Below, one piece after another: positions 53,319-63,912 of a DNA stretch of 63,914 nt. The DNA lies in the NCBI GenBank assembly GCA_022705945.1, contig JAKJDL010000009.1:1-63914 (forward strand). The letters run 5' to 3'. Within the stretch, counting starts at the first letter, position 1, and the number at the start of each line of letters is the position of its first letter. The DNA is from Candidatus Omnitrophota bacterium. GTDB taxonomy: Bacteria > Omnitrophota > Omnitrophia > Omnitrophales > Aquincolibacteriaceae. Both the position numbers and the translations under genes were made by a program. Under the pieces are notes generated by a model. That model was given only the letters and a program-made list of their open reading frames with translations. It was not told the DNA's origin and did not search any database.

Positions 53319-55235
53319 TCAAGGTTTGTCGCTATCTTCCGTCCGCAATCTGTTTTTCTGCTCTTCGACCGCCCGTTTAAGCATTTTACAGTAAAGATCG
53401 AACCCGACGGCGTGGATGAAGCCGCTCTGCTCGTGACCGAGGAGGTTTCCGGCCCCGCGGATCTCGAGGTCCTGCATCGCAATCTTGAAACCGGACCCGA
53501 GCTCCACGAACCGCCCGATCGCGGCAAGGCGCTTTTCGGCATCAAGCGTCATCACCCAGTTCTTCGGGGTAAGAAAATAAGCGTAGGCCTGCCTCGCTTC
53601 CTTGAAACGGCCCACCCGCCCCCGGAGCTGATAAAGATCGGCAAGACCAAAGCAGTCGGCGCGGTTCACGATCAATGTGTTCGCGTTCGGGATATCGATC
53701 CCCGACTCGATGATATTCGTCGAGATCAGACAGTCGACCGCCCCTTTCATGAAGCTCATCATAACCTTCTCAAGGGCCTCGACCGGCATCTGCCCGTGAG
53801 CGACGCCGAAGCGGACGCCGGGCATGAGGTTCCTGAGCTTTTCGTGAATCTTTTCAATGTTTTCCACCCGGTTATGTACAAAATAGACCTGCCCCCTGCG
53901 TTCGACTTCACGCTCGATCGCCTGCTTCACGATATTCTCATGATACTCCATTACAAACGTCCGGACCGGCATACGATGTCGCGGCGGAGTGTCAATTACC
54001 GACATATCGCGGACACCGAGCAAGGCCATGTGGAGCGTCCTCGGGATCGGAGTCGCGGTAAGTGTCAAAACGTCCACCTGGCTCCTCATTTTTTTAAGCG
54101 CTTCCTTGTGCCGGACTCCGAAGCGCTGCTCTTCATCGATAATGACGAGCCCGAGCTCCTTGAACTCAACGTCGCGCGAAAGAAGACGGTGCGTGCCGAT
54201 CACGATGTCCGTCGCTCCCGTTTTAACCGAGCTGACCACCGCTTTCTGCGCGGCAGCCGTCTGGAATCTGGAAAGCAGGCCGACCGTCAGGGGAAATGTT
54301 TTGACACGGTCCTTGAGAAGGATGTAGTGCTGTTCGGCGAGAATGGTCGTCGGCACGAGGAATGCGACCTGCTTGCCGCCCGTCACGGCCTTGAACGCCG
54401 CGCGCATCGCGACCTCGGTCTTCCCGTAGCCCACGTCCCCGCAAAGAAGCCGGTCCATCGGTTTCGAGGTTTCCATATCGCCTTTAACCTCCTCGATCGC
54501 CCGCTTTTGTCCCCGGGTTTCCCGGAACGGAAACTCCGCCTCGAATTTTTTCTGCCAGTCGTGGTCTTCCGGAAAAGCGAAACCCTGCTGGACCCTGCGC
54601 CGGGCCTGGATCTCGAGAAGTTCGCCCGCGACCTTGTGAAGCGCCGTCCGGGTCCTTTGCTTGATCCGCTCCCACTCCCTGGTGTTGAGCTTCGTGAGCT
54701 TCGGTTCCCGGGCGGAGCCGCCGATGTAGCGCTCGACCGGTTCTTTCAGGGAAAGATAGAGGATCTCGGAATTCGCGTATTCGATCGCGTAACAACGTTC
54801 CTTTTTTCCTTCCAGCCGAATCTGCTTTGTTCCGAGGAAACGCCCGATTCCGTAATGGAAGTGAACGACAAAATCACCGCGTTTGAGATCCCCCGCCCCC
54901 TCCACCGGTTCAAAAGTCCCGAAGCGCTCTTCAAGCCGCCGGATTTTTTTCTTAAATTGTCCCGCGAGAGGGATAAGGAAAATCTCTTCGAATGAGGTGA
55001 AGCTTCTTCCTTCCGCGGGAGAAAAATCGCGGATCAGGGATAGCGTGTCGCCCCGGAAATCGAGGCGGACCGGCATCCGGTAGGTTACGGGATAAATATC
55101 GACAGTCCCCCCGCGAATGGAATATTCTCCGGGAAGCTCGACAAGATTTTTTTTCTGATAACGGAGAGCGTCCAAAACCGCTTCGAGTTCCTCAAAGCGT
55201 ATAGTTTCCCCGATCTTGAGATGCCTGATGTCCAT
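53319..55235 (-). CDS. mfd: Transcription-repair coupling factor, truncated 638-aa form
   Basis: [29 protein letters not shown] (RID), [60 protein letters not shown]. Confidence 0.95.
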
Positions 55236-55396
55236 ATTTTTCCAGCCTCCGGCCTATAGCCGACAGCTCACATATAAAAAACAAAAATTCACGCTTCTTA
55301 ATGAACGAATCGTTTGCGAAACAAGGCAGCGCAAATGATCCGCGAAAATCAACCGCGTCGTTTCATTGCAACGCGGCAGGGCGAGACGGCTTCATA

Positions 55397-55915
55397 TTAC
55401 CTGACAATAATCGGCGCGTCTCTCCACAGGCCCCGTTTGGCTTGACGCGCATCTTTCTGCAAACTCAAAAACAGATCCTTATATTTCACGTTTGGCGGGA
55501 CCGTGTAAACCGTCGCGTAACCTTCCTTCACAAGCTCGGCGTTGATAAAAGTGCCGTCTTCCAGAAAAAGATACGCGAGCGTACGGCCAAACCGGTCTTT
55601 CGTCTCGACGTCATATTCAAGACGCACGCGTTTCCCTTCCGCCGCCGAACGGGTGAATTGCGCGGACCGTTTCCCGAGCGCAAGAATCGTGTCGTGATCC
55701 CAACCCGTCCGCTCCGCGTCCCGTTTAAGCTTGGCGTTCGACCGCGACTCGGGTGTATCGATCCCGATCAGCCGCACCTTCCGGCCGTCCGACAAGATCA
55801 CCGTGTCCCCGTCCGCCACCCTTTTGACCGTATAGAAAGTCCCCTGACCCCAGACGGCAGGCACGACCGTCCCAAACCAGAAAAAAATAAAAAATGAACA
55901 GAAGATTTTTCCCAT
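55397..55915 (-). CDS. Secreted thermonuclease (SNase family)
   Basis: Signal peptide; VADGDT, VRLIGIDTPE, DRFGRTLAY, NAELVKEGYA, AKRGLW. Confidence 0.93.
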   Translation of the reverse strand: MGKIFCSFFIFFWFGTVVPAVWGQGTFYTVKRVADGDTVILSDGRKVRLIGIDTPESRSNAKLKRDAERTGWDHDTILALGKRSAQFTRSAAEGKRVRLEYDVETKDRFGRTLAYLFLEDGTFINAELVKEGYATVYTVPPNVKYKDLFLSLQKDARQAKRGLWRDAPIIVR

Positions 55916-55981
55916 CAAAGAGATTATAGAACGGAGAAAATGAAGGGGACAGGCAATTCATCAACATTTGTCCCCTTTCCG

Positions 55982-56010
55982 GTGACTGTCATCCGTCTCG
56001 CGGTTATAAT
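55982..56010 (+). promoter_or_regulatory. Candidate sigma70 promoter for the M50 protease
   Basis: GTGACT, 17-nt spacer, TATAAT (56005-56010). Confidence 0.5.
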
Positions 56011-56079
56011 ACCTGCGCTTTCCCGCTGTGTTTTTTCTGTTCTGTTTTTCACTTTTGAAAGGATAAGGATAAAGAAATC

Positions 56080-56715
56080 ATGGGGTTACTGCGACTGCTT
56101 TATCAGGACCCGCTGACGTTCGCACTGCTCGCGGTCCTTTTGCTATATTCGGTGATCCTTCACGAGGTGGCGCACGGGTGGGTCGCGAGCCTTTTCGGGG
56201 ATGACACGGCCAGGCGCTCGGGGCGGCTCACGCTCGCGCCGCTTCCCCATTTAAGTCCCGCCGGAACTCTCGCCCTCTTTCTCGTGGGATTTGGATGGGC
56301 CAGGCCGGTGCCGGTCAATTACTCGCGGCTGACCCCGCGGCGCGCGGGTTTTTTCTGCGTGTCGCTCGCGGGCTGCGCGGCAAATATCCTGATCGCTGCG
56401 GCCGCGGCCGCATTGCTTCAATCCGCCAGGATTAGCTCCGTCCCGCTTTTGGCAAAAGCCCTCCCGATCCTCGTCTACATCAACATCACTCTCGGAGCCC
56501 TGAACCTCATCCCGATTCCCCCGCTCGACGGCTCCAAAGTCGTAATGAGCTTCCTTCCCGGCAAGGTCCGGCAGACGCTCACCCGGATCGAACCTTACGG
56601 GTTTGTGATACTGATCCTCCTCATCGTGAGCGGCCTCCTGACCCCGGTGCTCCTCGCGATACAAAAAATGCTCTTTACCCTTATCGCTCTCATGCTTCAA
56701 CTGCACCCGGCATGA
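56080..56715 (+). CDS. Site-2 protease family (M50) intramembrane zinc protease
   Basis: LHEVAHG, GRLTLAPLPHL, FGWARPVP, LAGCAAN, NLIPIPPLDG; the only recognised plus-strand gene. Confidence 0.95.
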   Translation: MGLLRLLYQDPLTFALLAVLLLYSVILHEVAHGWVASLFGDDTARRSGRLTLAPLPHLSPAGTLALFLVGFGWARPVPVNYSRLTPRRAGFFCVSLAGCAANILIAAAAAALLQSARISSVPLLAKALPILVYINITLGALNLIPIPPLDGSKVVMSFLPGKVRQTLTRIEPYGFVILILLIVSGLLTPVLLAIQKMLFTLIALMLQLHPA

Positions 56716-56727
56716 AACAGGTGCCGT

Positions 56728-59700
56728 TTACGCGGCTTTCTGGATCGAGGCTTGGGCTTGGTAGGTGCGCTGGAGAGCGGCAAGAAGAGCGCTTCGATGC
56801 ACTATCAGGTGGCGGCCGTTCATTGAAAACACGGCTTCGTCCCGGGCTACGGCATCAAGCTGGAAGAGAAGCTTGCATAATTCCGCGTTGATTTCCGCGG
56901 GTGAAGGAGCCTTCCCCTCCATTTTAAGCCGGGTATAAACAATCCCGGCCGCGATCCGGGTGACATGCTCCGCAATCTCAAGGAATGTTTCTCCCGTAAT
57001 GCTTCCGTCATCATCTAATCCGACACCGAAAAGATTGGGGTTGTTTTCAAAATAAGAAGCTCCAATATCTTCCGAGATAACGGGAATGGCCCCGCGGTTT
57101 TCGGCGGCAACCGGATTAAACGTGGCCAGGCTCCTTACCGTCTGAACGATTAATCCCTCCAGATCGTTCCGGTTCAACCGTTGGGCCTTGTCGCCCGGGA
57201 AGACGACCGTCTCGAGGCCAAACCGCACCGCCCGCAGGGCTTCCAGAAAATTCTTGTCGGGGGCCCGGTCAAAAACAGCCGTCATATTCCCCTTAAGATC
57301 GGATGCCCGAAGGAAATCCCGGAGGCCGTCGCTAATCCTTTCAATGAAATCACGCGCCATCTGGTCCGTGACCCGAACGGGCGATCCCGGTTGCCGGCTT
57401 TGGGACTCTGCGGCGCTTTCGATCTTGCTGATCGCATCCGCCATCATCTGCTCAACAAACTTATCAATCCCCATTTCTTTCACCGCCCGGACAAGCTCTC
57501 CTGCCTGCTCGGGAGACATCTCCCCTTTTGGCATCGAAGGATCCAGCGCCCCGGCAGCCACCTGAGCCGCTGTTTCTCCACGGACTCGCACCTCCGCGCG
57601 GCGGAGTCCCTGCTGTCCGGAGCGGGCGGGGACGGCTTGCCCTGGTAAAACCTGCACTTCAACGGGTTTGGCCTTGCCTGTCGGTAACGCAAGAAAAAGC
57701 ACATCTCCCCAGGTCTCCACTCTATAATTTTTTGATAAATTATCCTGGATTGCTTTCTTGTCATCTACGGAATAATTAGGACCTGCGATTCGATTCCCGA
57801 ATCTATTGTGAATCAAGTAGCCCTCAGGGCTTAAGAGAGGACGGAGCGATTTTAGATAGTTCGTGTACGGCTCGTATGACGCCTGGTTGGCGAGATGATG
57901 CAGGGCGGAATAACTGAACAGGATGTCGATTGATCCCGCCTCAAAGTGTTTTGAAAAATTATCTGATGGATCCAGAATCAGCCTGATTCCAAGCTTGGAT
58001 GCCTCTTTCCATTCCGGCGCGATCATGTCAGCGAACCCGATGAGCTCCACCGCATCTCTCAGGCCTTTCTCTTTGAGAGTTTTGTCCAGCTCCATGAGCG
58101 CGCGCGCGTTTCCGCAGCCCCAGTCCACAATTTTTATTTTCCCTTCTTTACCCTCTGCTTTCGCGGCACTTGCTTTTGCCATAATATCCTCAACAAAATC
58201 AATGCCCGCCTGATTAAAACTATCACTGACTTCCTTTAAAGAAGTCTCAAATATTCTCCAGTCACCAAACTTGAGAGTCCCGTCGGAGTTTATTCGCAGC
58301 CCCTTGTGCCCTTGTAATTCCGCCAATTGGGTCAGATCTTTACGATTAATATTTGCGGTCGTGGAAAATTTAAAACCAGCCTCGATTGTCACTTCATGTG
58401 CTTCCATGCGCGCTTCCGAGCGGGCAACGGTTTCTCCTGTTTCGTCAACCAATCGAGCTAACCGCGCAGGATCGACTTTCGCCAAGTCAATCAACCCCAC
58501 AATAAACGGAATCAGTTTTTCTTCAGACTTCTCCCACTCATCGATTTCAGCGATATCTGAACCGGATAAAAAATCATCCTTAGCGACTCTCAAGCGTTCC
58601 CAGGGTCTGGTTCTTTGTTTAAGTTGAACCGCTTTGCTACCTAAAAACATGGGTTTTTGTAATTTACGGAAAAAAGCTTCACCCCCGCCTGGACCTTCCG
58701 AAAGCTCAGAAGTCTCGAGTCGAAGATCTCCTTTATGAACCTTGGTGAGTTTCGTGAGCCATTGGTAGAATAAATGTTCCCCGGCCCTGCGCCCGCGAGC
58801 TTCAGGAGCAGTAAAGATTAGACCCAATTCATAGTGATCCTTCGCCAACTGCTTGTATGTGAGAAAGCTCAAGACCGGTCCATTCCTTTCCCTCAACGCA
58901 AGCATCTTGTAATCCCCTCCCATATAGGCCGCCGCTCCGAACATGTGCAAAGCGTTGCCTCGGCCAAAATCATCCCGCAAGCGAACGATCTCCGGGTCAC
59001 CTTCGTTTACCTCGGCAACCTCATATTTCGGCATCGACCCTGTTTTTGATCTTGTCATTGTCCGACGAAATACATCGATAGCTGTCCGGATTTTCATGAT
59101 TTGAGCATGAGTAGAAGCGTCCAAGCTGCGAAGCGAACGATTGAGGGCATCCTGCTGTTCTGCAGGCGTACCCAAATATTTCCAGGATAAAATGCGGCGC
59201 TGTTCTTCGTTCCTCACGCGTTTGATCTTCGCGAGTTCCTGCTCCTGGCTCTTAAGAAAAGCCTCCAGTGCCGGATTATTGGCCAAAAGCTCTGCCGTTG
59301 CCCATGCCGGGAAAAGCTTTTCGTAATACATATGCGGGAACCGATCTTCCACATTCACGGTTCGGGCCGGCACTTCAGCTGTTTTTCGAGCTTCCGAGCG
59401 GGCGGGGGAGGCTTTGCCGGTTTTTGAGCGGCCCGCAAGTTCTGTCATCGCCGCAATCTCATCCGAATACGCATTGCTCACAGAGATGATCACATCAAAG
59501 TGTTCACCGGGCCCCAGATCCTTGCGCTTGAGCCTGACCCACCGGTTTATTTCATTTTCCACTCTCTTCTGATTTAGCTTTCGATTGTGCTTGCCGGCCT
59601 CCTGTTCAATGACTTCCCAGACTTTGTCGTTGAACAGAAAATCCGTTACTTTCTCTAAACGCAGCTTAAGGGAAAACCCTTTCTCCGTCATCACCAGTTC

Positions 59701-62700
59701 CGGTTCACCGGGGCCCCGGAGGCTCTTGAGATAGGCTAAAACAGCCTTTCCCATGTAACCGCCGTCATTTTCCGCAAAAAAAACAAGGTTACGTATGTGC
59801 GAAAGTTCAGGGTCATCCACAATCGCCTGAAGATGAGAAAGCCGATTCCGGTCGCCCCCCATAACCTGCATTATCACATCCAAAAGCCCCCCGTGGAATT
59901 TCGACTCAAGGACCGTATTCCACGTCCGGGCATCCAGTTCTTTCCTTCCGTTATACACGACCGGGTTGACCTCTTCAAGCCTGCCCGATTCAAGGTTTCT
60001 GAGGACCCCCCCCCGATTAACCACCAACTCGTAGAGGCCTGAAACTTCCCCTGAAATGCCGAGCACAGTCGATTCTTCCCTGTTTTCCTCCATCGAGTCC
60101 GCTGCTTTCTTGGCGGCCGCCAGCACATATTTTCTGATGAGCAACGGCTCCGAAGGCCCTTCGTAGTTATAAAGCTCCAACAGTTTTTTTGCTAACCGGT
60201 CGGGATTAAAGTTTTTGAACGAGAATCCTGAAGGATTCGTCCTGATCCGGTCAAGATTCACGCCCAATTCCGCCTCGCTCATGCGTGCTTTTGAACGGAT
60301 TTCCGAGCGGGTGCGGGCTTCCCGGCGGTCGGCGGAACCGGCGGCCCGCCCTTGAGAAGCCTGCTCTTCGAAGCGCTTGAGGAAGGCAAGATGCGATTCA
60401 GCAAGGCTGACAAGGCGGTAGGAAAGGCCCCATCGCTCAAATAATATGCCGGGCCGGCGCACGATTTCCCTAAAATCCATGTTCTTGGCGTTAATAACGA
60501 GAGTGCGGTCAACGCTTTTGGGCTTGTAATACATGCGATGTTTAACACTACCGTCATCTTGATCGTCCGCGAAACGGTAACCAATCCGGCCGGAGGCGCC
60601 ATCAAAAAGCTTGTCGCTGCCGATTCCCCGAGGATTAAAACGGACTTTCGGCGACGCACGGACACCGACGTCAAACAAGGCCCGGTCCAGCAATGTTCCC
60701 AAATACATCGCGCCCAGGTCATAAAGATCCATGGGGCGTCGAATATGCAAGATAATCATTGCGACGGCCAACAAAAATGTTATCGCTCCAAAAACAGCGC
60801 TGAGAATCGCGAAGCCCGCCAGCACCGAAAAGATCAATAACAACGCCGATGTGGCCGCGATAAGTGTCACTGTTGTTTTTCGCGCGTGGTTTTCTTTCAA
60901 AATTCTGGTGAGAGCACCCCCAAGCATGTTATCCATTCTCGCGGCATCATCAGGAAACCAGTAGACCGTCATCCCCTTGCCTCTTTGGGTATTGGTTTGC
61001 AAAGGAAGGTTTGTAAACTTTAAATCCTCCTGATTCGTCTCCATTTTGAACACCACTTTCAAAGTTTCCAGGACTCCCCTGACCACAGGAACGGTCGTGA
61101 GGACATCGGGGACATCGATCGCAACATGAAGCTTCCATCCTTGATGCTGGGAAAGGGGGTGGAAAAATCTCGCGGCATAACGCGGAACTGCCCATCCCCG
61201 AATTGTCACAAGACCCTTTCTGGCAACGTCTACGGGATCGCGTTCGACGGAAAGCATGCTTCCTTCTGAAAGATTTTTTAGGGTGAGACCGGAAGAATTA
61301 TAGGTCACTTCAATATTAATATTGGTGCCCGTGTCCCGGTAAGTATAGCTTTCTCCCTGAGCAAGAACGAATCGTTTCTTCGGACCAGTAATGGTTATTT
61401 GGGGATCCGATTTCGGATCTGATTTGTTAAAAGAAAAACTGAACGGCACCCCATTTAAGATGAGATAAGCCTCTTCAGAGGGGCTGATCACGTTGGGTCC
61501 GCTTTTACTAAACTCATATTTTTGATTTAGAAAATCGACCCTGTGGGTCACTCCAGGCGCCAGCTGCGCCACGCGCAGATCATCCGGCTTCGCGCGACGT
61601 TCCGCCCGCGCTTCCGAGCGAATTTCAGCGCGGGCAGCGTCCCCCGTTCGAGAGACGGTGAGACCGGCTGAACGGGTTTCAGAGCGTTCTTTCGCAATCG
61701 TTCTTTGCAACATTAACCTTCGGACCACGGCTTCATATTCTCCCTTCCCCGGGCGCAAGGTTCCGGCTCGCCAAAAGGGCCCGGTACGGGAAATACTCAT
61801 AATCTGATTTTGATCGTTCCAAACAATTTCATACATTTTTTCTTCCAAAGACAATTTTTCCGCCCTTAGACCAAGATGTCGATTCGGGATGACCTCAATA
61901 AAAACTTCGATAAACTCCATCTGTTCGGGCTCTATCGCTCCTACAATAGCCGCCTCCAAATGACTCCCTAGCGAATTCCAGTAAGTCATCCGGACGTTTC
62001 CTTTCTTATTGCCCCTTCCTGTGGGATTTAGAGTCATCAAAAGTCCCAAGCTTCCTTGTATCCCCTTAGTGTTCAGATCTTTCATTATCCGGGACACTTC
62101 CTCAGCCGTCCCAGCAACCCTGTATCTTTGAGCTTTCATAAACTTCCGTCCAAAGATCTCCCGGAGAATGCGTCCCAGCATTTTCAGCCCTGAAGTTTTC
62201 TGCCCGTATGCAGAATAGCGGGTGTAATGCTCCGCCCATTCTTTTTGCGGTGTCGCTGAGCGGACCTTCGGGTTCCGTCTCCCGGCAAAATGTCCAAGGG
62301 TCTCCCATAAACCGATCCCCTTGTTGATCTCCAATTCGCCCAAACTCGGGTCCTTATCTCCCTCCTCTAAAATTTTGATAATCTCATCCGGTTTCCCGTA
62401 AACCCCACGGTAAAGCGGTTGCGAACCTACCCGATATAGGCTCACAAGAATTAAATTCATGATCCCCGTATAGATGGCTACGGTCAGAAACGCTACTCCG
62501 GCGGTTATAACGCCTTGAGCTCCCAAGGACGCATCGTAAAAAAACTTGATCTGCGAAAGCTGATACATTTCCGCCAAGATCACGACCATGGAAATAGCGA
62601 TCGCAACGATCGGCGACATAAAACGATTCCAGGGATTTGGCTGAGCGAAAAAATCAAATGCCGCCTGCCGTGCGGCCTGCACGAAAATATACGCAGGGTG

Positions 62701-63912
62701 GTCCTCCTGCCGGTATAGAGCTGAAGCCTCCGCCGCCGGATCTTGTAGGGCCTCTCCCCCCCGTGCTTCCGAGCGGGTGCGGACTTCCCGGCGGTCGGCG
62801 GAACCGGTAACCTGCCCCGACCCTCGCATATCATCCGTACGGGCCGCGATCGTTTCCCTCACCGTTTCCCTCACCTTGTACGTGGCAATATAGCGTTTTA
62901 AAACATACCGATCTGACATGCGAATCATTTCAGGGAACCGATCGACCCAATCCGGATTTTGTTCAATAAAAAGCTCTGCGGCAACGTAGCCTTCCAAATG
63001 CCATCCGAGGTTATACACTTCACCCTCCCTCATCATCACAGTCACAGCGAGCCCCGCAACACCGGTCGTCGCCAATTCGAAAATAGCTCTTTGAAGCTGA
63101 TTCATTTCATACTTCATCCACTCACTCTCCCTGGCATAGTTTTCGGCTTCCTCGCTCCGGATGTAATCGCGAAATTCGATCATGGTCCGGAGGTAAAACA
63201 GCACATCCGCGGCAGGATGTCCGGTGATCTTATCGAAGCCCCGCAAGAGCAGACTGATCTTCGGAAGATCCTTTTCCAGAACCTCGACAAATTCACGGTA
63301 GACTATTCCGCCGCTTATAAAGCGCTTCCATGCCGGCAAAATCACGTTCTCGTAATAATGTTTCAGAACTGCTGCCCTCTTCGTGGCAAGCGAATCCAAA
63401 TCCGCCAACCTCTTCTGCGCGGCTGCTATACGCTCCTTTTCCTTGGCGATTGAGCGGATGATCCGCTGAAACTCTTCCGGATCAGACCACTTTCTCTGCA
63501 GCGCCCCCTGCAACAGGGATTCCTGGGGCGTTCCCTTGACAATCGCCTTCGCGTAGTTCTCTCCCAAACGGCCAAAAAACTCGTCGACCACACCCGTCTC
63601 GAAATCCCCCAACTTCCGCTGCCACCACTTTTTTTGTTTTTTCTTCATGAAGCCCCGAAGCCAATGGATCAACTCCTCACCCAGGATCGAAAGATCACCA
63701 AAGTGCTCCGGCAACAGCAGCAGGACGTTGCGATCATGAAAATAGGCCGAAGTCCCGAAACTCTGAGGTGCCACAGCCAGAACGGGTATTGGAAAAGAAA
63801 CACCCAGATCCTTTGTTATAAGATTGATGACATTGAGAACCTCCTCCCTAGGCCCTGGCGGTAAGAGGTCTGTATACAACTGCCGTTCGACAGCAGCGTT
63901 TTTCGGCTGGCG
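56728..63912 (-). CDS. Giant multi-module protein (5' end outside window; at least 2394 codons)
   Basis: The frame stays open from the track's TTG at 63879 to the window edge. Contains GNAT, class I SAM methyltransferase, LanKC/OspF-like lyase and TM modules separated by R-[SA]-E-x-R linkers; ends QASIQKAA. Confidence 0.9.
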   Translation of the reverse strand, partial: RQPKNAAVERQLYTDLLPPGPREEVLNVINLITKDLGVSFPIPVLAVAPQSFGTSAYFHDRNVLLLLPEHFGDLSILGEELIHWLRGFMKKKQKKWWQRKLGDFETGVVDEFFGRLGENYAKAIVKGTPQESLLQGALQRKWSDPEEFQRIIRSIAKEKERIAAAQKRLADLDSLATKRAAVLKHYYENVILPAWKRFISGGIVYREFVEVLEKDLPKISLLLRGFDKITGHPAADVLFYLRTMIEFRDYIRSEEAENYARESEWMKYEMNQLQRAIFELATTGVAGLAVTVMMREGEVYNLGWHLEGYVAAELFIEQNPDWVDRFPEMIRMSDRYVLKRYIATYKVRETVRETIAARTDDMRGSGQVTGSADRREVRTRSEARGGEALQDPAAEASALYRQEDHPAYIFVQAARQAAFDFFAQPNPWNRFMSPIVAIAISMVVILAEMYQLSQIKFFYDASLGAQGVITAGVAFLTVAIYTGIMNLILVSLYRVGSQPLYRGVYGKPDEIIKILEEGDKDPSLGELEINKGIGLWETLGHFAGRRNPKVRSATPQKEWAEHYTRYSAYGQKTSGLKMLGRILREIFGRKFMKAQRYRVAGTAEEVSRIMKDLNTKGIQGSLGLLMTLNPTGRGNKKGNVRMTYWNSLGSHLEAAIVGAIEPEQMEFIEVFIEVIPNRHLGLRAEKLSLEEKMYEIVWNDQNQIMSISRTGPFWRAGTLRPGKGEYEAVVRRLMLQRTIAKERSETRSAGLTVSRTGDAARAEIRSEARAERRAKPDDLRVAQLAPGVTHRVDFLNQKYEFSKSGPNVISPSEEAYLILNGVPFSFSFNKSDPKSDPQITITGPKKRFVLAQGESYTYRDTGTNINIEVTYNSSGLTLKNLSEGSMLSVERDPVDVARKGLVTIRGWAVPRYAARFFHPLSQHQGWKLHVAIDVPDVLTTVPVVRGVLETLKVVFKMETNQEDLKFTNLPLQTNTQRGKGMTVYWFPDDAARMDNMLGGALTRILKENHARKTTVTLIAATSALLLIFSVLAGFAILSAVFGAITFLLAVAMIILHIRRPMDLYDLGAMYLGTLLDRALFDVGVRASPKVRFNPRGIGSDKLFDGASGRIGYRFADDQDDGSVKHRMYYKPKSVDRTLVINAKNMDFREIVRRPGILFERWGLSYRLVSLAESHLAFLKRFEEQASQGRAAGSADRREARTRSEIRSKARMSEAELGVNLDRIRTNPSGFSFKNFNPDRLAKKLLELYNYEGPSEPLLIRKYVLAAAKKAADSMEENREESTVLGISGEVSGLYELVVNRGGVLRNLESGRLEEVNPVVYNGRKELDARTWNTVLESKFHGGLLDVIMQVMGGDRNRLSHLQAIVDDPELSHIRNLVFFAENDGGYMGKAVLAYLKSLRGPGEPELVMTEKGFSLKLRLEKVTDFLFNDKVWEVIEQEAGKHNRKLNQKRVENEINRWVRLKRKDLGPGEHFDVIISVSNAYSDEIAAMTELAGRSKTGKASPARSEARKTAEVPARTVNVEDRFPHMYYEKLFPAWATAELLANNPALEAFLKSQEQELAKIKRVRNEEQRRILSWKYLGTPAEQQDALNRSLRSLDASTHAQIMKIRTAIDVFRRTMTRSKTGSMPKYEVAEVNEGDPEIVRLRDDFGRGNALHMFGAAAYMGGDYKMLALRERNGPVLSFLTYKQLAKDHYELGLIFTAPEARGRRAGEHLFYQWLTKLTKVHKGDLRLETSELSEGPGGGEAFFRKLQKPMFLGSKAVQLKQRTRPWERLRVAKDDFLSGSDIAEIDEWEKSEEKLIPFIVGLIDLAKVDPARLARLVDETGETVARSEARMEAHEVTIEAGFKFSTTANINRKDLTQLAELQGHKGLRINSDGTLKFGDWRIFETSLKEVSDSFNQAGIDFVEDIMAKASAAKAEGKEGKIKIVDWGCGNARALMELDKTLKEKGLRDAVELIGFADMIAPEWKEASKLGIRLILDPSDNFSKHFEAGSIDILFSYSALHHLANQASYEPYTNYLKSLRPLLSPEGYLIHNRFGNRIAGPNYSVDDKKAIQDNLSKNYRVETWGDVLFLALPTGKAKPVEVQVLPGQAVPARSGQQGLRRAEVRVRGETAAQVAAGALDPSMPKGEMSPEQAGELVRAVKEMGIDKFVEQMMADAISKIESAAESQSRQPGSPVRVTDQMARDFIERISDGLRDFLRASDLKGNMTAVFDRAPDKNFLEALRAVRFGLETVVFPGDKAQRLNRNDLEGLIVQTVRSLATFNPVAAENRGAIPVISEDIGASYFENNPNLFGVGLDDDGSITGETFLEIAEHVTRIAAGIVYTRLKMEGKAPSPAEINAELCKLLFQLDAVARDEAVFSMNGRHLIVHRSALLAALQRTYQAQASIQKAA
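60301..62807 (-). repeat. 41-bp direct repeat pair (60301-60341 and 62767-62807) inside the giant gene
   Basis: TTCCGAGCGGGTGCGG(G/A)CTTCCCGGCGGTCGGCGGAACCGG, 40/41 identical, encoding GSADRRE(A/V)RTRSE. Confidence 0.95.

Follow-up and report, generated by a model that had tools for sequence, protein, structure and literature searches.

Codon preference and linker copying at the module borders of a giant modular gene in a Candidatus Omnitrophota genome

It has been proposed that the giant multi-enzyme proteins of Omnitrophota are cut after translation (10.1101/2023.11.21.568195; 10.64898/2026.06.07.730766), and the cleavage points are stated to be unknown (West-Roberts et al. 2023, bioRxiv 10.1101/2023.11.21.568195). 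The 2026 preprint (10.64898/2026.06.07.730766) has no mention of a motif, a linker or cleavage, and neither of the two papers gives a separator motif or an analysis of the joints at the DNA level. How the giant genes of Omnitrophota are built, and whether their products are cut into separate proteins, is left open by the papers searched. The window analysed here, 63,914 bases long, comprises the first bases of the 64,308-base contig C50 (JAKJDL010000009.1) in a Candidatus Omnitrophota genome bin of 1.58 Mb and 50 contigs (G000), and its end is occupied by a giant modular open reading frame (ORF), called the giant gene below:

56728-63912, minus strand: giant modular ORF, 2394 codons within the window; stop codon at 56728-56730, 5' end running into a scaffold gap

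The window ends at this gap of 10 N, beyond which the contig has 384 more bases where an open frame of the same kind continues; the 5' end of the gene, including the place where an N-terminal TIKI/TraB-like head domain would stand, lies beyond both the gap and the contig end. Within the window, the ORF includes nine occurrences of R-[S/A]-E-x-R at six joints (protein residues 380, 743, 761-769 with three chained, 1202, 1505, 1831 and 2105). The gene belongs, as a species-specific member, to the giant modular ORFs of Omnitrophota, in which gene-sized modules are split by this motif. R-[S/A]-E-x-R is repeated at the module borders of a very long ORF, the same motif is found in nine other giants, and a conserved C-terminal tail module stands behind a separator. 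Like the giants of West-Roberts et al., the gene strings unrelated enzyme-like and membrane segments into one very long ORF. Unlike the Archaeovorin / Dockerin-type class of 30,000 amino acids (aa) or more, it has at least 2394 codons, and Pfam detected no GT1, TPR, C39/S8 peptidase or dockerin repeats in the ORF.

As at the cleavage sites of viral polyproteins, one short consensus recurs wherever gene-sized units adjoin within a single reading frame; unlike there, R-[S/A]-E-x-R is recognised as a separator from the sequence, and no protease is tied to the motif. To our knowledge, viral polyprotein sites do not carry a codon-specific bias. Within modular polyketide synthase (PKS) and nonribosomal peptide synthetase (NRPS) genes, Nivina et al. 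reportedly described in 2021 the GRINS elements, with concerted evolution or recombination inside the gene. The tracts in PKS/NRPS genes are near-identical and sharp-edged, with identical synonymous sites, and are thought to speed the re-assortment of modules. The giant gene resembles this intragenic conversion in having near-identical DNA tracts between units of one gene, with 12 of 12 codons the same in the linker copies. However, its tracts are of 27-41 nucleotides (nt), and those of the giants of the genome overall of 27-55 nt, against hundreds to thousands of bases in homologous domains of PKS/NRPS genes; they are also confined to linkers between unrelated modules. Conserved joints with orphan or silent cassettes are known from the polymorphic toxin loci CdiA (VENN motif) and Rhs (PxxxxDPxGL) and from the antigenic-variation loci Borrelia vlsE (17-bp repeats) and Neisseria pilE/pilS. 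Also in the giant gene a short conserved motif marks the module border and direct repeats flank a block, but no silent or orphan cassette carrying the joint sequence was found in the genome.

An earlier reading of the window (the original prediction) took five linkers written with the identical codons CGC-TCG-GAA as possible joints for the shuffling of modules, on the argument that a protein motif would not fix codons. The pattern probably has two overlaid causes: a codon preference specific to the motif, and a recent event in which one long linker was copied to three of the gene's joints. New in the present analysis are the third linker copy, a survey of linker-to-linker repeats in 31 giants, a breakdown of the codon identity, and the codon bias at the first Arg of the motif. 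The linkers and separators of the ORF are the following:

62767-62807, minus strand: long linker, copy 1 (linker 1), encoding (T)GSADRREVRTRSE; its last 9 nt are the CGC-TCG-GAA of RSEAR (motif 62761-62775)
61672-61686, minus strand: RSETR separator, written CGC-TCT-GAA, the sole non-matching RSExR of the giant gene
61594-61632, minus strand: chained separators RAEIR-SEAR-AERR, three overlapping motifs; the middle RSEAR is CGC-TCG-GAA (61612-61620)
60301-60341, minus strand: long linker, copy 2 (linker 3), encoding (A)GSADRREARTRSE; motif RSEIR at 60295-60309
59386-59400, minus strand: short linker PARSEARK, written GCC-CGC-TCG-GAA-GCT-CGA
58408-58422, minus strand: short linker VARSEARM, written GCC-CGC-TCG-GAA-GCG-CGC
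57586-57600, minus strand: RAEVR separator, preceding the conserved tail module

The core CGCTCGGAA was found on the minus strand at five linker sites (58414-58422, 59392-59400, 60301-60309, 61612-61620 and 62767-62775) and once elsewhere in the window. All five linker sites are in frame in the giant ORF as the R-S-E of R-S-E-x-R, as had been claimed. The preceding codon is ACC twice, GCC twice and ATT once, which also agrees with the observation that CC stands ahead of the core in four of the five.

Alignment confirmed that linkers 1 and 3 are identical at 40 of 41 nt (62767-62807 vs 60301-60341) and that their spacing of 2466 nt is in frame (822 codons). The sole nucleotide difference changes Val to Ala, and at all 12 residues that the two linkers share the codons are identical (P = 2.4e-7, calculated from codon usage). 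Past the end of the window and the 10-N gap, the 27-nt core CGCCGGGAAGCCCGCACCCGCTCGGAA is present a third time, at 63977-64003 of contig C50. This linker copy (63977-64010) encodes RREARTRSE, its core being identical to that of linker 3, and is followed by GVRAEVR directly at the gap. The 27-nt core has altogether three copies, all in the giant gene and nowhere else in the genome, and exact-pattern scans of metagenome and genome contig collections gave no match. The element encodes a doubled separator, RRE[A/V]R-T-RSE. Each copy is in frame within one continuous ORF, with its own flanks and its own differences, and similarity ends after GAA in all three, as there is no restriction on the residue x that follows. 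The modules ahead of the copies are not paralogous, and only their last ~60 residues align, weakly. The 41-nt family is a true copy at the DNA level.

Contig-end overlaps of 77 nt recur in the assembly, so that the largest assembler k was apparently 77. As this exceeds the 41-nt repeat, a chimeric join at the repeat is unlikely, and the assembly included no alternative-joint contigs for the giant gene. The direct repeats flank the 2466-nt block, with the third copy upstream, and could allow the 822-codon block to be lost or duplicated in frame. From repeated linkers of 27-55 nt, particular deletion and duplication alleles, likewise in frame, are predicted.

Among the four R-S-E-A-R linkers, the two synonymous sites that follow, 3-6 nt past GAA, all differ (GCA/GCG/GCT/GCG and CGG/CGG/CGA/CGC). 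Because these downstream synonymous sites differ, none of the four cores is a recent copy of another, barring a copied tract that was exactly the core. The sharing of linkers at the DNA level is upheld for one linker of 27-41 nt at three joints, but most of the codon identity is motif codon preference.

Altogether 66 RSExR sites are present in the genome, in ten ORFs of 2200-8210 codons including the giant gene, and none in its other long ORFs. The sites use 25 codon triples, AGC and AGT Ser included, and module homology in giants of other genera mostly starts, at the protein level, within a few residues of the subject's own motif; R-[S/A]-E-x-R is therefore first of all a protein-level signal. 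CGC made up 48% of the first-Arg codons (background 23%), TCG 39% of the Ser codons (26%) and GAA 58% of the Glu codons (56%), and Ser at the separators was nearly always TCS. CGC-TCG-GAA was the commonest triple, both overall (12 of 66 sites) and outside the giant gene (7 of 60).

The preference for CGC at the first Arg was found in six of the seven genomes with enough sites. It was 43% vs a background of 19% in G000 without the giant gene (p = 2e-5), 43% vs 17% in G001 (p = 3.5e-5), 61% vs 20% in G009 (p = 1.6e-5) and 91% vs 32% in G043 (p = 4e-9), and weak in G012 (48% vs 29%, p = 0.04) and G003 (45% vs 31%, not significant). No bias was seen in G002, where only four sites were usable. At the R[SA]ExR sites in giants of G000, G001, G003, G009, G012 and G043, CGC (or CGY) was about two to three times commoner at the first Arg than at Arg residues elsewhere in like context. 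At the second Arg of these motifs, codon use followed the background, R[SA]E tripeptides not followed by xR had no CGC bias, and no constraint was detected on the third bases of the Glu and second-Arg codons at the separators. Such a bias at one synonymous site, the third base of the first Arg, and not at the second Arg is unexpected for a protein-only signal.

Since CGC-TCG-GAA is the commonest set and CGC is favoured at the first Arg in most genomes, most of the linker codon identity is codon preference. Part of the codon fixation on which the original prediction was built is consequently a general trait of the separator. Compared with genome usage, CGC-TCG-GAA is in part just the preferred codon set. 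The C before the core is present in the linkers, but reflects a general context effect: genome-wide in G000, codons before any CGN-Arg end in C in 45% of cases vs 32% expected from amino-acid-specific usage, and in 48% at the motif.

Under general codon usage the frequency of CGC-TCG-GAA is 0.034, giving P = 2.5e-7 for at least five of six sites. If the triple is instead given its frequency at the remaining 60 RSExR sites (0.117), P for five of six is 1.2e-4. When the repeat family was counted once, four of five cores were CGC-TCG-GAA (P = 8.4e-4; ~0.008 with correction for ten genes). Permutation testing for triples shared within a gene gave p = 0.007 in the genome and 0.058 without the giant gene, and within-gene clustering of cores was absent in G001 (0.09), G003 (0.98), G012 (0.15) and G043 (0.76). 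In other giants of this genome, as many as 11 different codon triples are found within a single gene. In its identical cores, the giant gene is an outlier and not an example of a rule.

Several other sources of the codon bias were tried and rejected. The R-S dipeptide context was dismissed because CGC-TCG makes up just 4.5% of ordinary R-S pairs, translational optimality because the ribosomal-protein operon has no CGC or TCG preference, and the tRNA repertoire because the Arg tRNA set is complete. No alternation with His or Lys, which might have given rise to the CGY codons, was seen at position 1, and RNA structure at the linkers had no excess over synonymous recoding (mean z = -0.01). Neither was GC-biased conversion supported, as C is enriched but G depleted on the coding strand. 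The class of the Ser codon (TCN or AGY) was set aside as an ancestry marker for linkers, since it does not cluster by gene (p = 0.37).

In the nine motif-bearing giants of the genome, seven of the eight intragenic DNA repeats pair two linkers, while linker neighbourhoods cover ~8-10% of the sequence. The repeats include 55 nt at 100% and 35 nt at 97% in giant C33, 54 nt in C46 and two repeats in C11, and their ends fall in or at RSE codons. Short within-gene linker repeats were also found in giants of independent assemblies, including other genera (G072, G043, G009 and G002), and long linker elements of 100-260 nt, 70-87% identical and repeated many times per gene, in G012 and G043. Linker-only repeats were essentially absent in twelve further giants of the congeners G001-G003. 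Linker copying is real but sporadic.

The search for the core in other giant genes or silent cassettes, suggested with the original prediction, came out negative in this genome. Linker repeats longer than 18 nt between different genes were not found, the giants had no DNA similarity at all with each other, so no recent cassette exchange was seen, and no silent cassettes with the joint sequence were present. The head of another giant of the genome matched more than ten giants per congener at 25-64% identity, and its cargo modules matched nothing there. Cargo turnover between congeners is fast, and the divergence is too great for reading DNA breakpoints.

The linker elements of G012:C1 and G043:C7 read, for example, ...EGKLWFETAKPEDG... 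or GPIWAEG...QAPSSNLRGLINQTPEVRSGRAEVR, and two tandem G012 giants carry similar elements. In G008:C14 the repeated linkers have the form KAELRA or RRELRA. Between lineages, the consensus of the separator apparently drifts, with S, A or another residue at position 2.

A separate observation concerns contig C30 (1093 nt), which merges into the giant C33 (79993-80116) 5-20 codons downstream of an RSExR joint. The two share 77 identical nt and 124 nt at 93.5%, and the upstream module of C30 differs and ends in its own RSENR. The merger represents a collapsed paralogue or else a joint that exists as an alternative in the population.

In the explanation favoured here, R-[S/A]-E-x-R would be a processing site of the protein. 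Codon preference at the first Arg would make CGC-TCG-GAA the commonest way to write R-S-E at any separator, and a long linker of 27-41 nt, encoding the doubled separator, would have been placed recently at three joints of the giant gene. The copying probably took place through short-tract gene conversion or template switching between linkers, or through duplication of the joint as a block of modules was inserted. That linkers, and not modules, are copied as DNA in some giants points to the joints as places where rearrangements arise or survive. Some points weigh against this explanation. Extra sameness of the cores within the giant gene remains beyond the motif codon preference (P ~8e-4, or ~0.008 for ten genes), the processing role of the motif is a putative one proposed from sequence, and mis-assembly at the repeats, or existing deletion alleles, may be involved.

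The model of the original prediction takes the 9-11-nt core (CC)CGCTCGGAA and the longer repeats as recombination substrates, through which in-frame cassettes are gained, lost and exchanged and the codons thereby kept; it is an unlikely explanation of the pattern, and several of its own predictions fail. It would account for five or six identical cores between unrelated flanks, above what motif codon preference predicts, for the significant clustering of identical cores in the genome (p = 0.007), and for the concentration of intragenic repeats at linkers with ends in or at RSE codons. Also consistent with it are the lack of the giant gene at the syntenic site in three congeners and of a full-length orthologue in ~100 family genomes, the wholly different cargo between head and tail among congeners, and the joining of C30 to C33 shortly past a separator with a different upstream module. 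However, the within-gene excess disappeared without the giant gene (p = 0.058) and was absent in four other genomes (0.09 to 0.98), and up to 11 triples are mixed in other giants of the genome. Between giants there is neither linker homology above 18 nt nor DNA similarity of any kind, and the model finds no silent cassettes in the genome and no recombinase among the neighbours of the giant gene. The third bases of Glu and the second Arg are unconstrained, the favouring of C and disfavouring of G on the coding strand leaves no footprint of GC-biased conversion, and the Ser codon classes are not clustered within genes. Furthermore, a core match of 9-14 nt is under the usual minimum for RecA-dependent recombination. 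Of the proposed role of linkers as joints for module shuffling, the copying of one linker as DNA and the seven of eight repeats joining linkers stand, but there is no direct evidence that linkers drive shuffling.

Selection on the separator as nucleic acid, with the third-base C of the first Arg kept for transcript processing, ribosome pausing or co-translational separation, is very unlikely, even though the bias sits at a single synonymous position, turns up in six of the seven genomes that have sufficient sites (in G012 and G003 weakly), and is lacking both at the equally invariant second Arg and in R[SA]E without a following xR. Against it stand the partial nature of the bias (43-91%), local RNA structure no stronger than after synonymous recoding, the lack of CGC preference in the ribosomal-protein operon and the full set of Arg tRNAs, and we know of no such codon-read mechanism in bacteria. 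Slightly less improbable, yet still decidedly doubtful, is the joint as a DNA or RNA site in its own right, being either a short core for in-frame insertion and excision of cassettes (an 'in-frame integron') or a signal for mRNA processing or decoding. Such a site would keep CGC at the first Arg in most lineages, and the identical cores and copied linkers of a young species-specific gene would be its fresh footprints. The most improbable is that the five cores were singled out after the fact from an uneven codon distribution, with the 27-41-nt repeats being an artefact of assembly or scaffolding of the metagenome bin. The finding was indeed picked by eye among many, and the 10-N scaffold gap adjoins a linker, but the three copies are in frame in one continuous ORF with their own flanks and differences, the likely k of 77 is greater than the repeat length, comparable linker repeats are present in separately assembled genomes of other genera, and a P of ~8e-4 is left after conservative correction.

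The claim that linkers are GC-rich and the modules between them AT-richer was correct for the contrast itself, GC being 0.58-0.78 in the linkers vs 0.47-0.56 in the modules of the giant ORF, but the contrast is due to amino-acid composition. Across all giants, the excess lies in codon positions 1 and 2 (0.66 and 0.55 vs 0.60 and 0.41), and GC at third positions (GC3) is equal (linkers 0.579, remainder 0.590); because the excess is confined to positions 1 and 2, linker GC-richness reflects amino-acid composition. Module GC3 (0.50-0.62) is within the spread of 300-codon windows (0.60, standard deviation 0.056). Also the tetranucleotide profiles and GC of the modules fall within the 1-kb spread of the genome, except that the short methyltransferase module is at the 2nd-4th percentile, without significance once all seven modules are taken into account. 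The predicted compositional contrast between modules was not found, the modules being compositionally ordinary, and a foreign origin of the modules was rejected with GC and tetranucleotide profiles within the genome spread. The apparent synonymous conservation is mostly codon preference and amino-acid composition, which guards against over-reading similar patterns.

Three further features of the giant ORF were distinguished:

60898-61149, minus strand: RamC_N / lanthionine-synthetase lyase-like domain in module 2 (Pfam)
57796-58143, minus strand: S-adenosylmethionine (SAM)-methyltransferase-like stretch in module 5, with weak, sub-threshold family similarity
56731-57585, minus strand: tail module, with homologues at the C-terminal end of other giant ORFs

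RamC_N alone reached the curated Pfam cut-off on the giant ORF, the methyltransferase matches being sub-threshold, and neither solved structures nor PHROGs gave a match that would point to module function. In the congener G002, a relative of the RamC_N-like module, 31% identical, also ends in RSELR and is without the long linker. Homologues of the methyltransferase-like module sit in unrelated giants of G008 and G009, and a weaker one in G013. The tail module has homologues of 26-43% identity at the C-terminal ends of giant ORFs of 1524-12270 aa in G002, G021, G072, G012 and G043, and in six of the seven re-aligned subjects the homology starts at the subject's own R[SA]ExR.

No close relatives of the whole giant protein were obtained by the homologous-protein search or by the related-locus search of metagenome contigs. 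The neighbours of the giant gene are housekeeping genes (Mfd-like, SurA, PdxA and KsgA), a nuclease gene and an M50 peptidase gene. The Mfd-like gene has 82-85% orthologues in three congeners, and no giant gene adjoins any of them. Synteny with these congeners (window 53319-56715) covers the genes for the Mfd-like protein and the nuclease and is lost ahead of the giant gene, which is species-specific at the site. The gene of the M50-family peptidase (211 aa, window 56080-56715, plus strand) converges on the 3' end of the giant gene.

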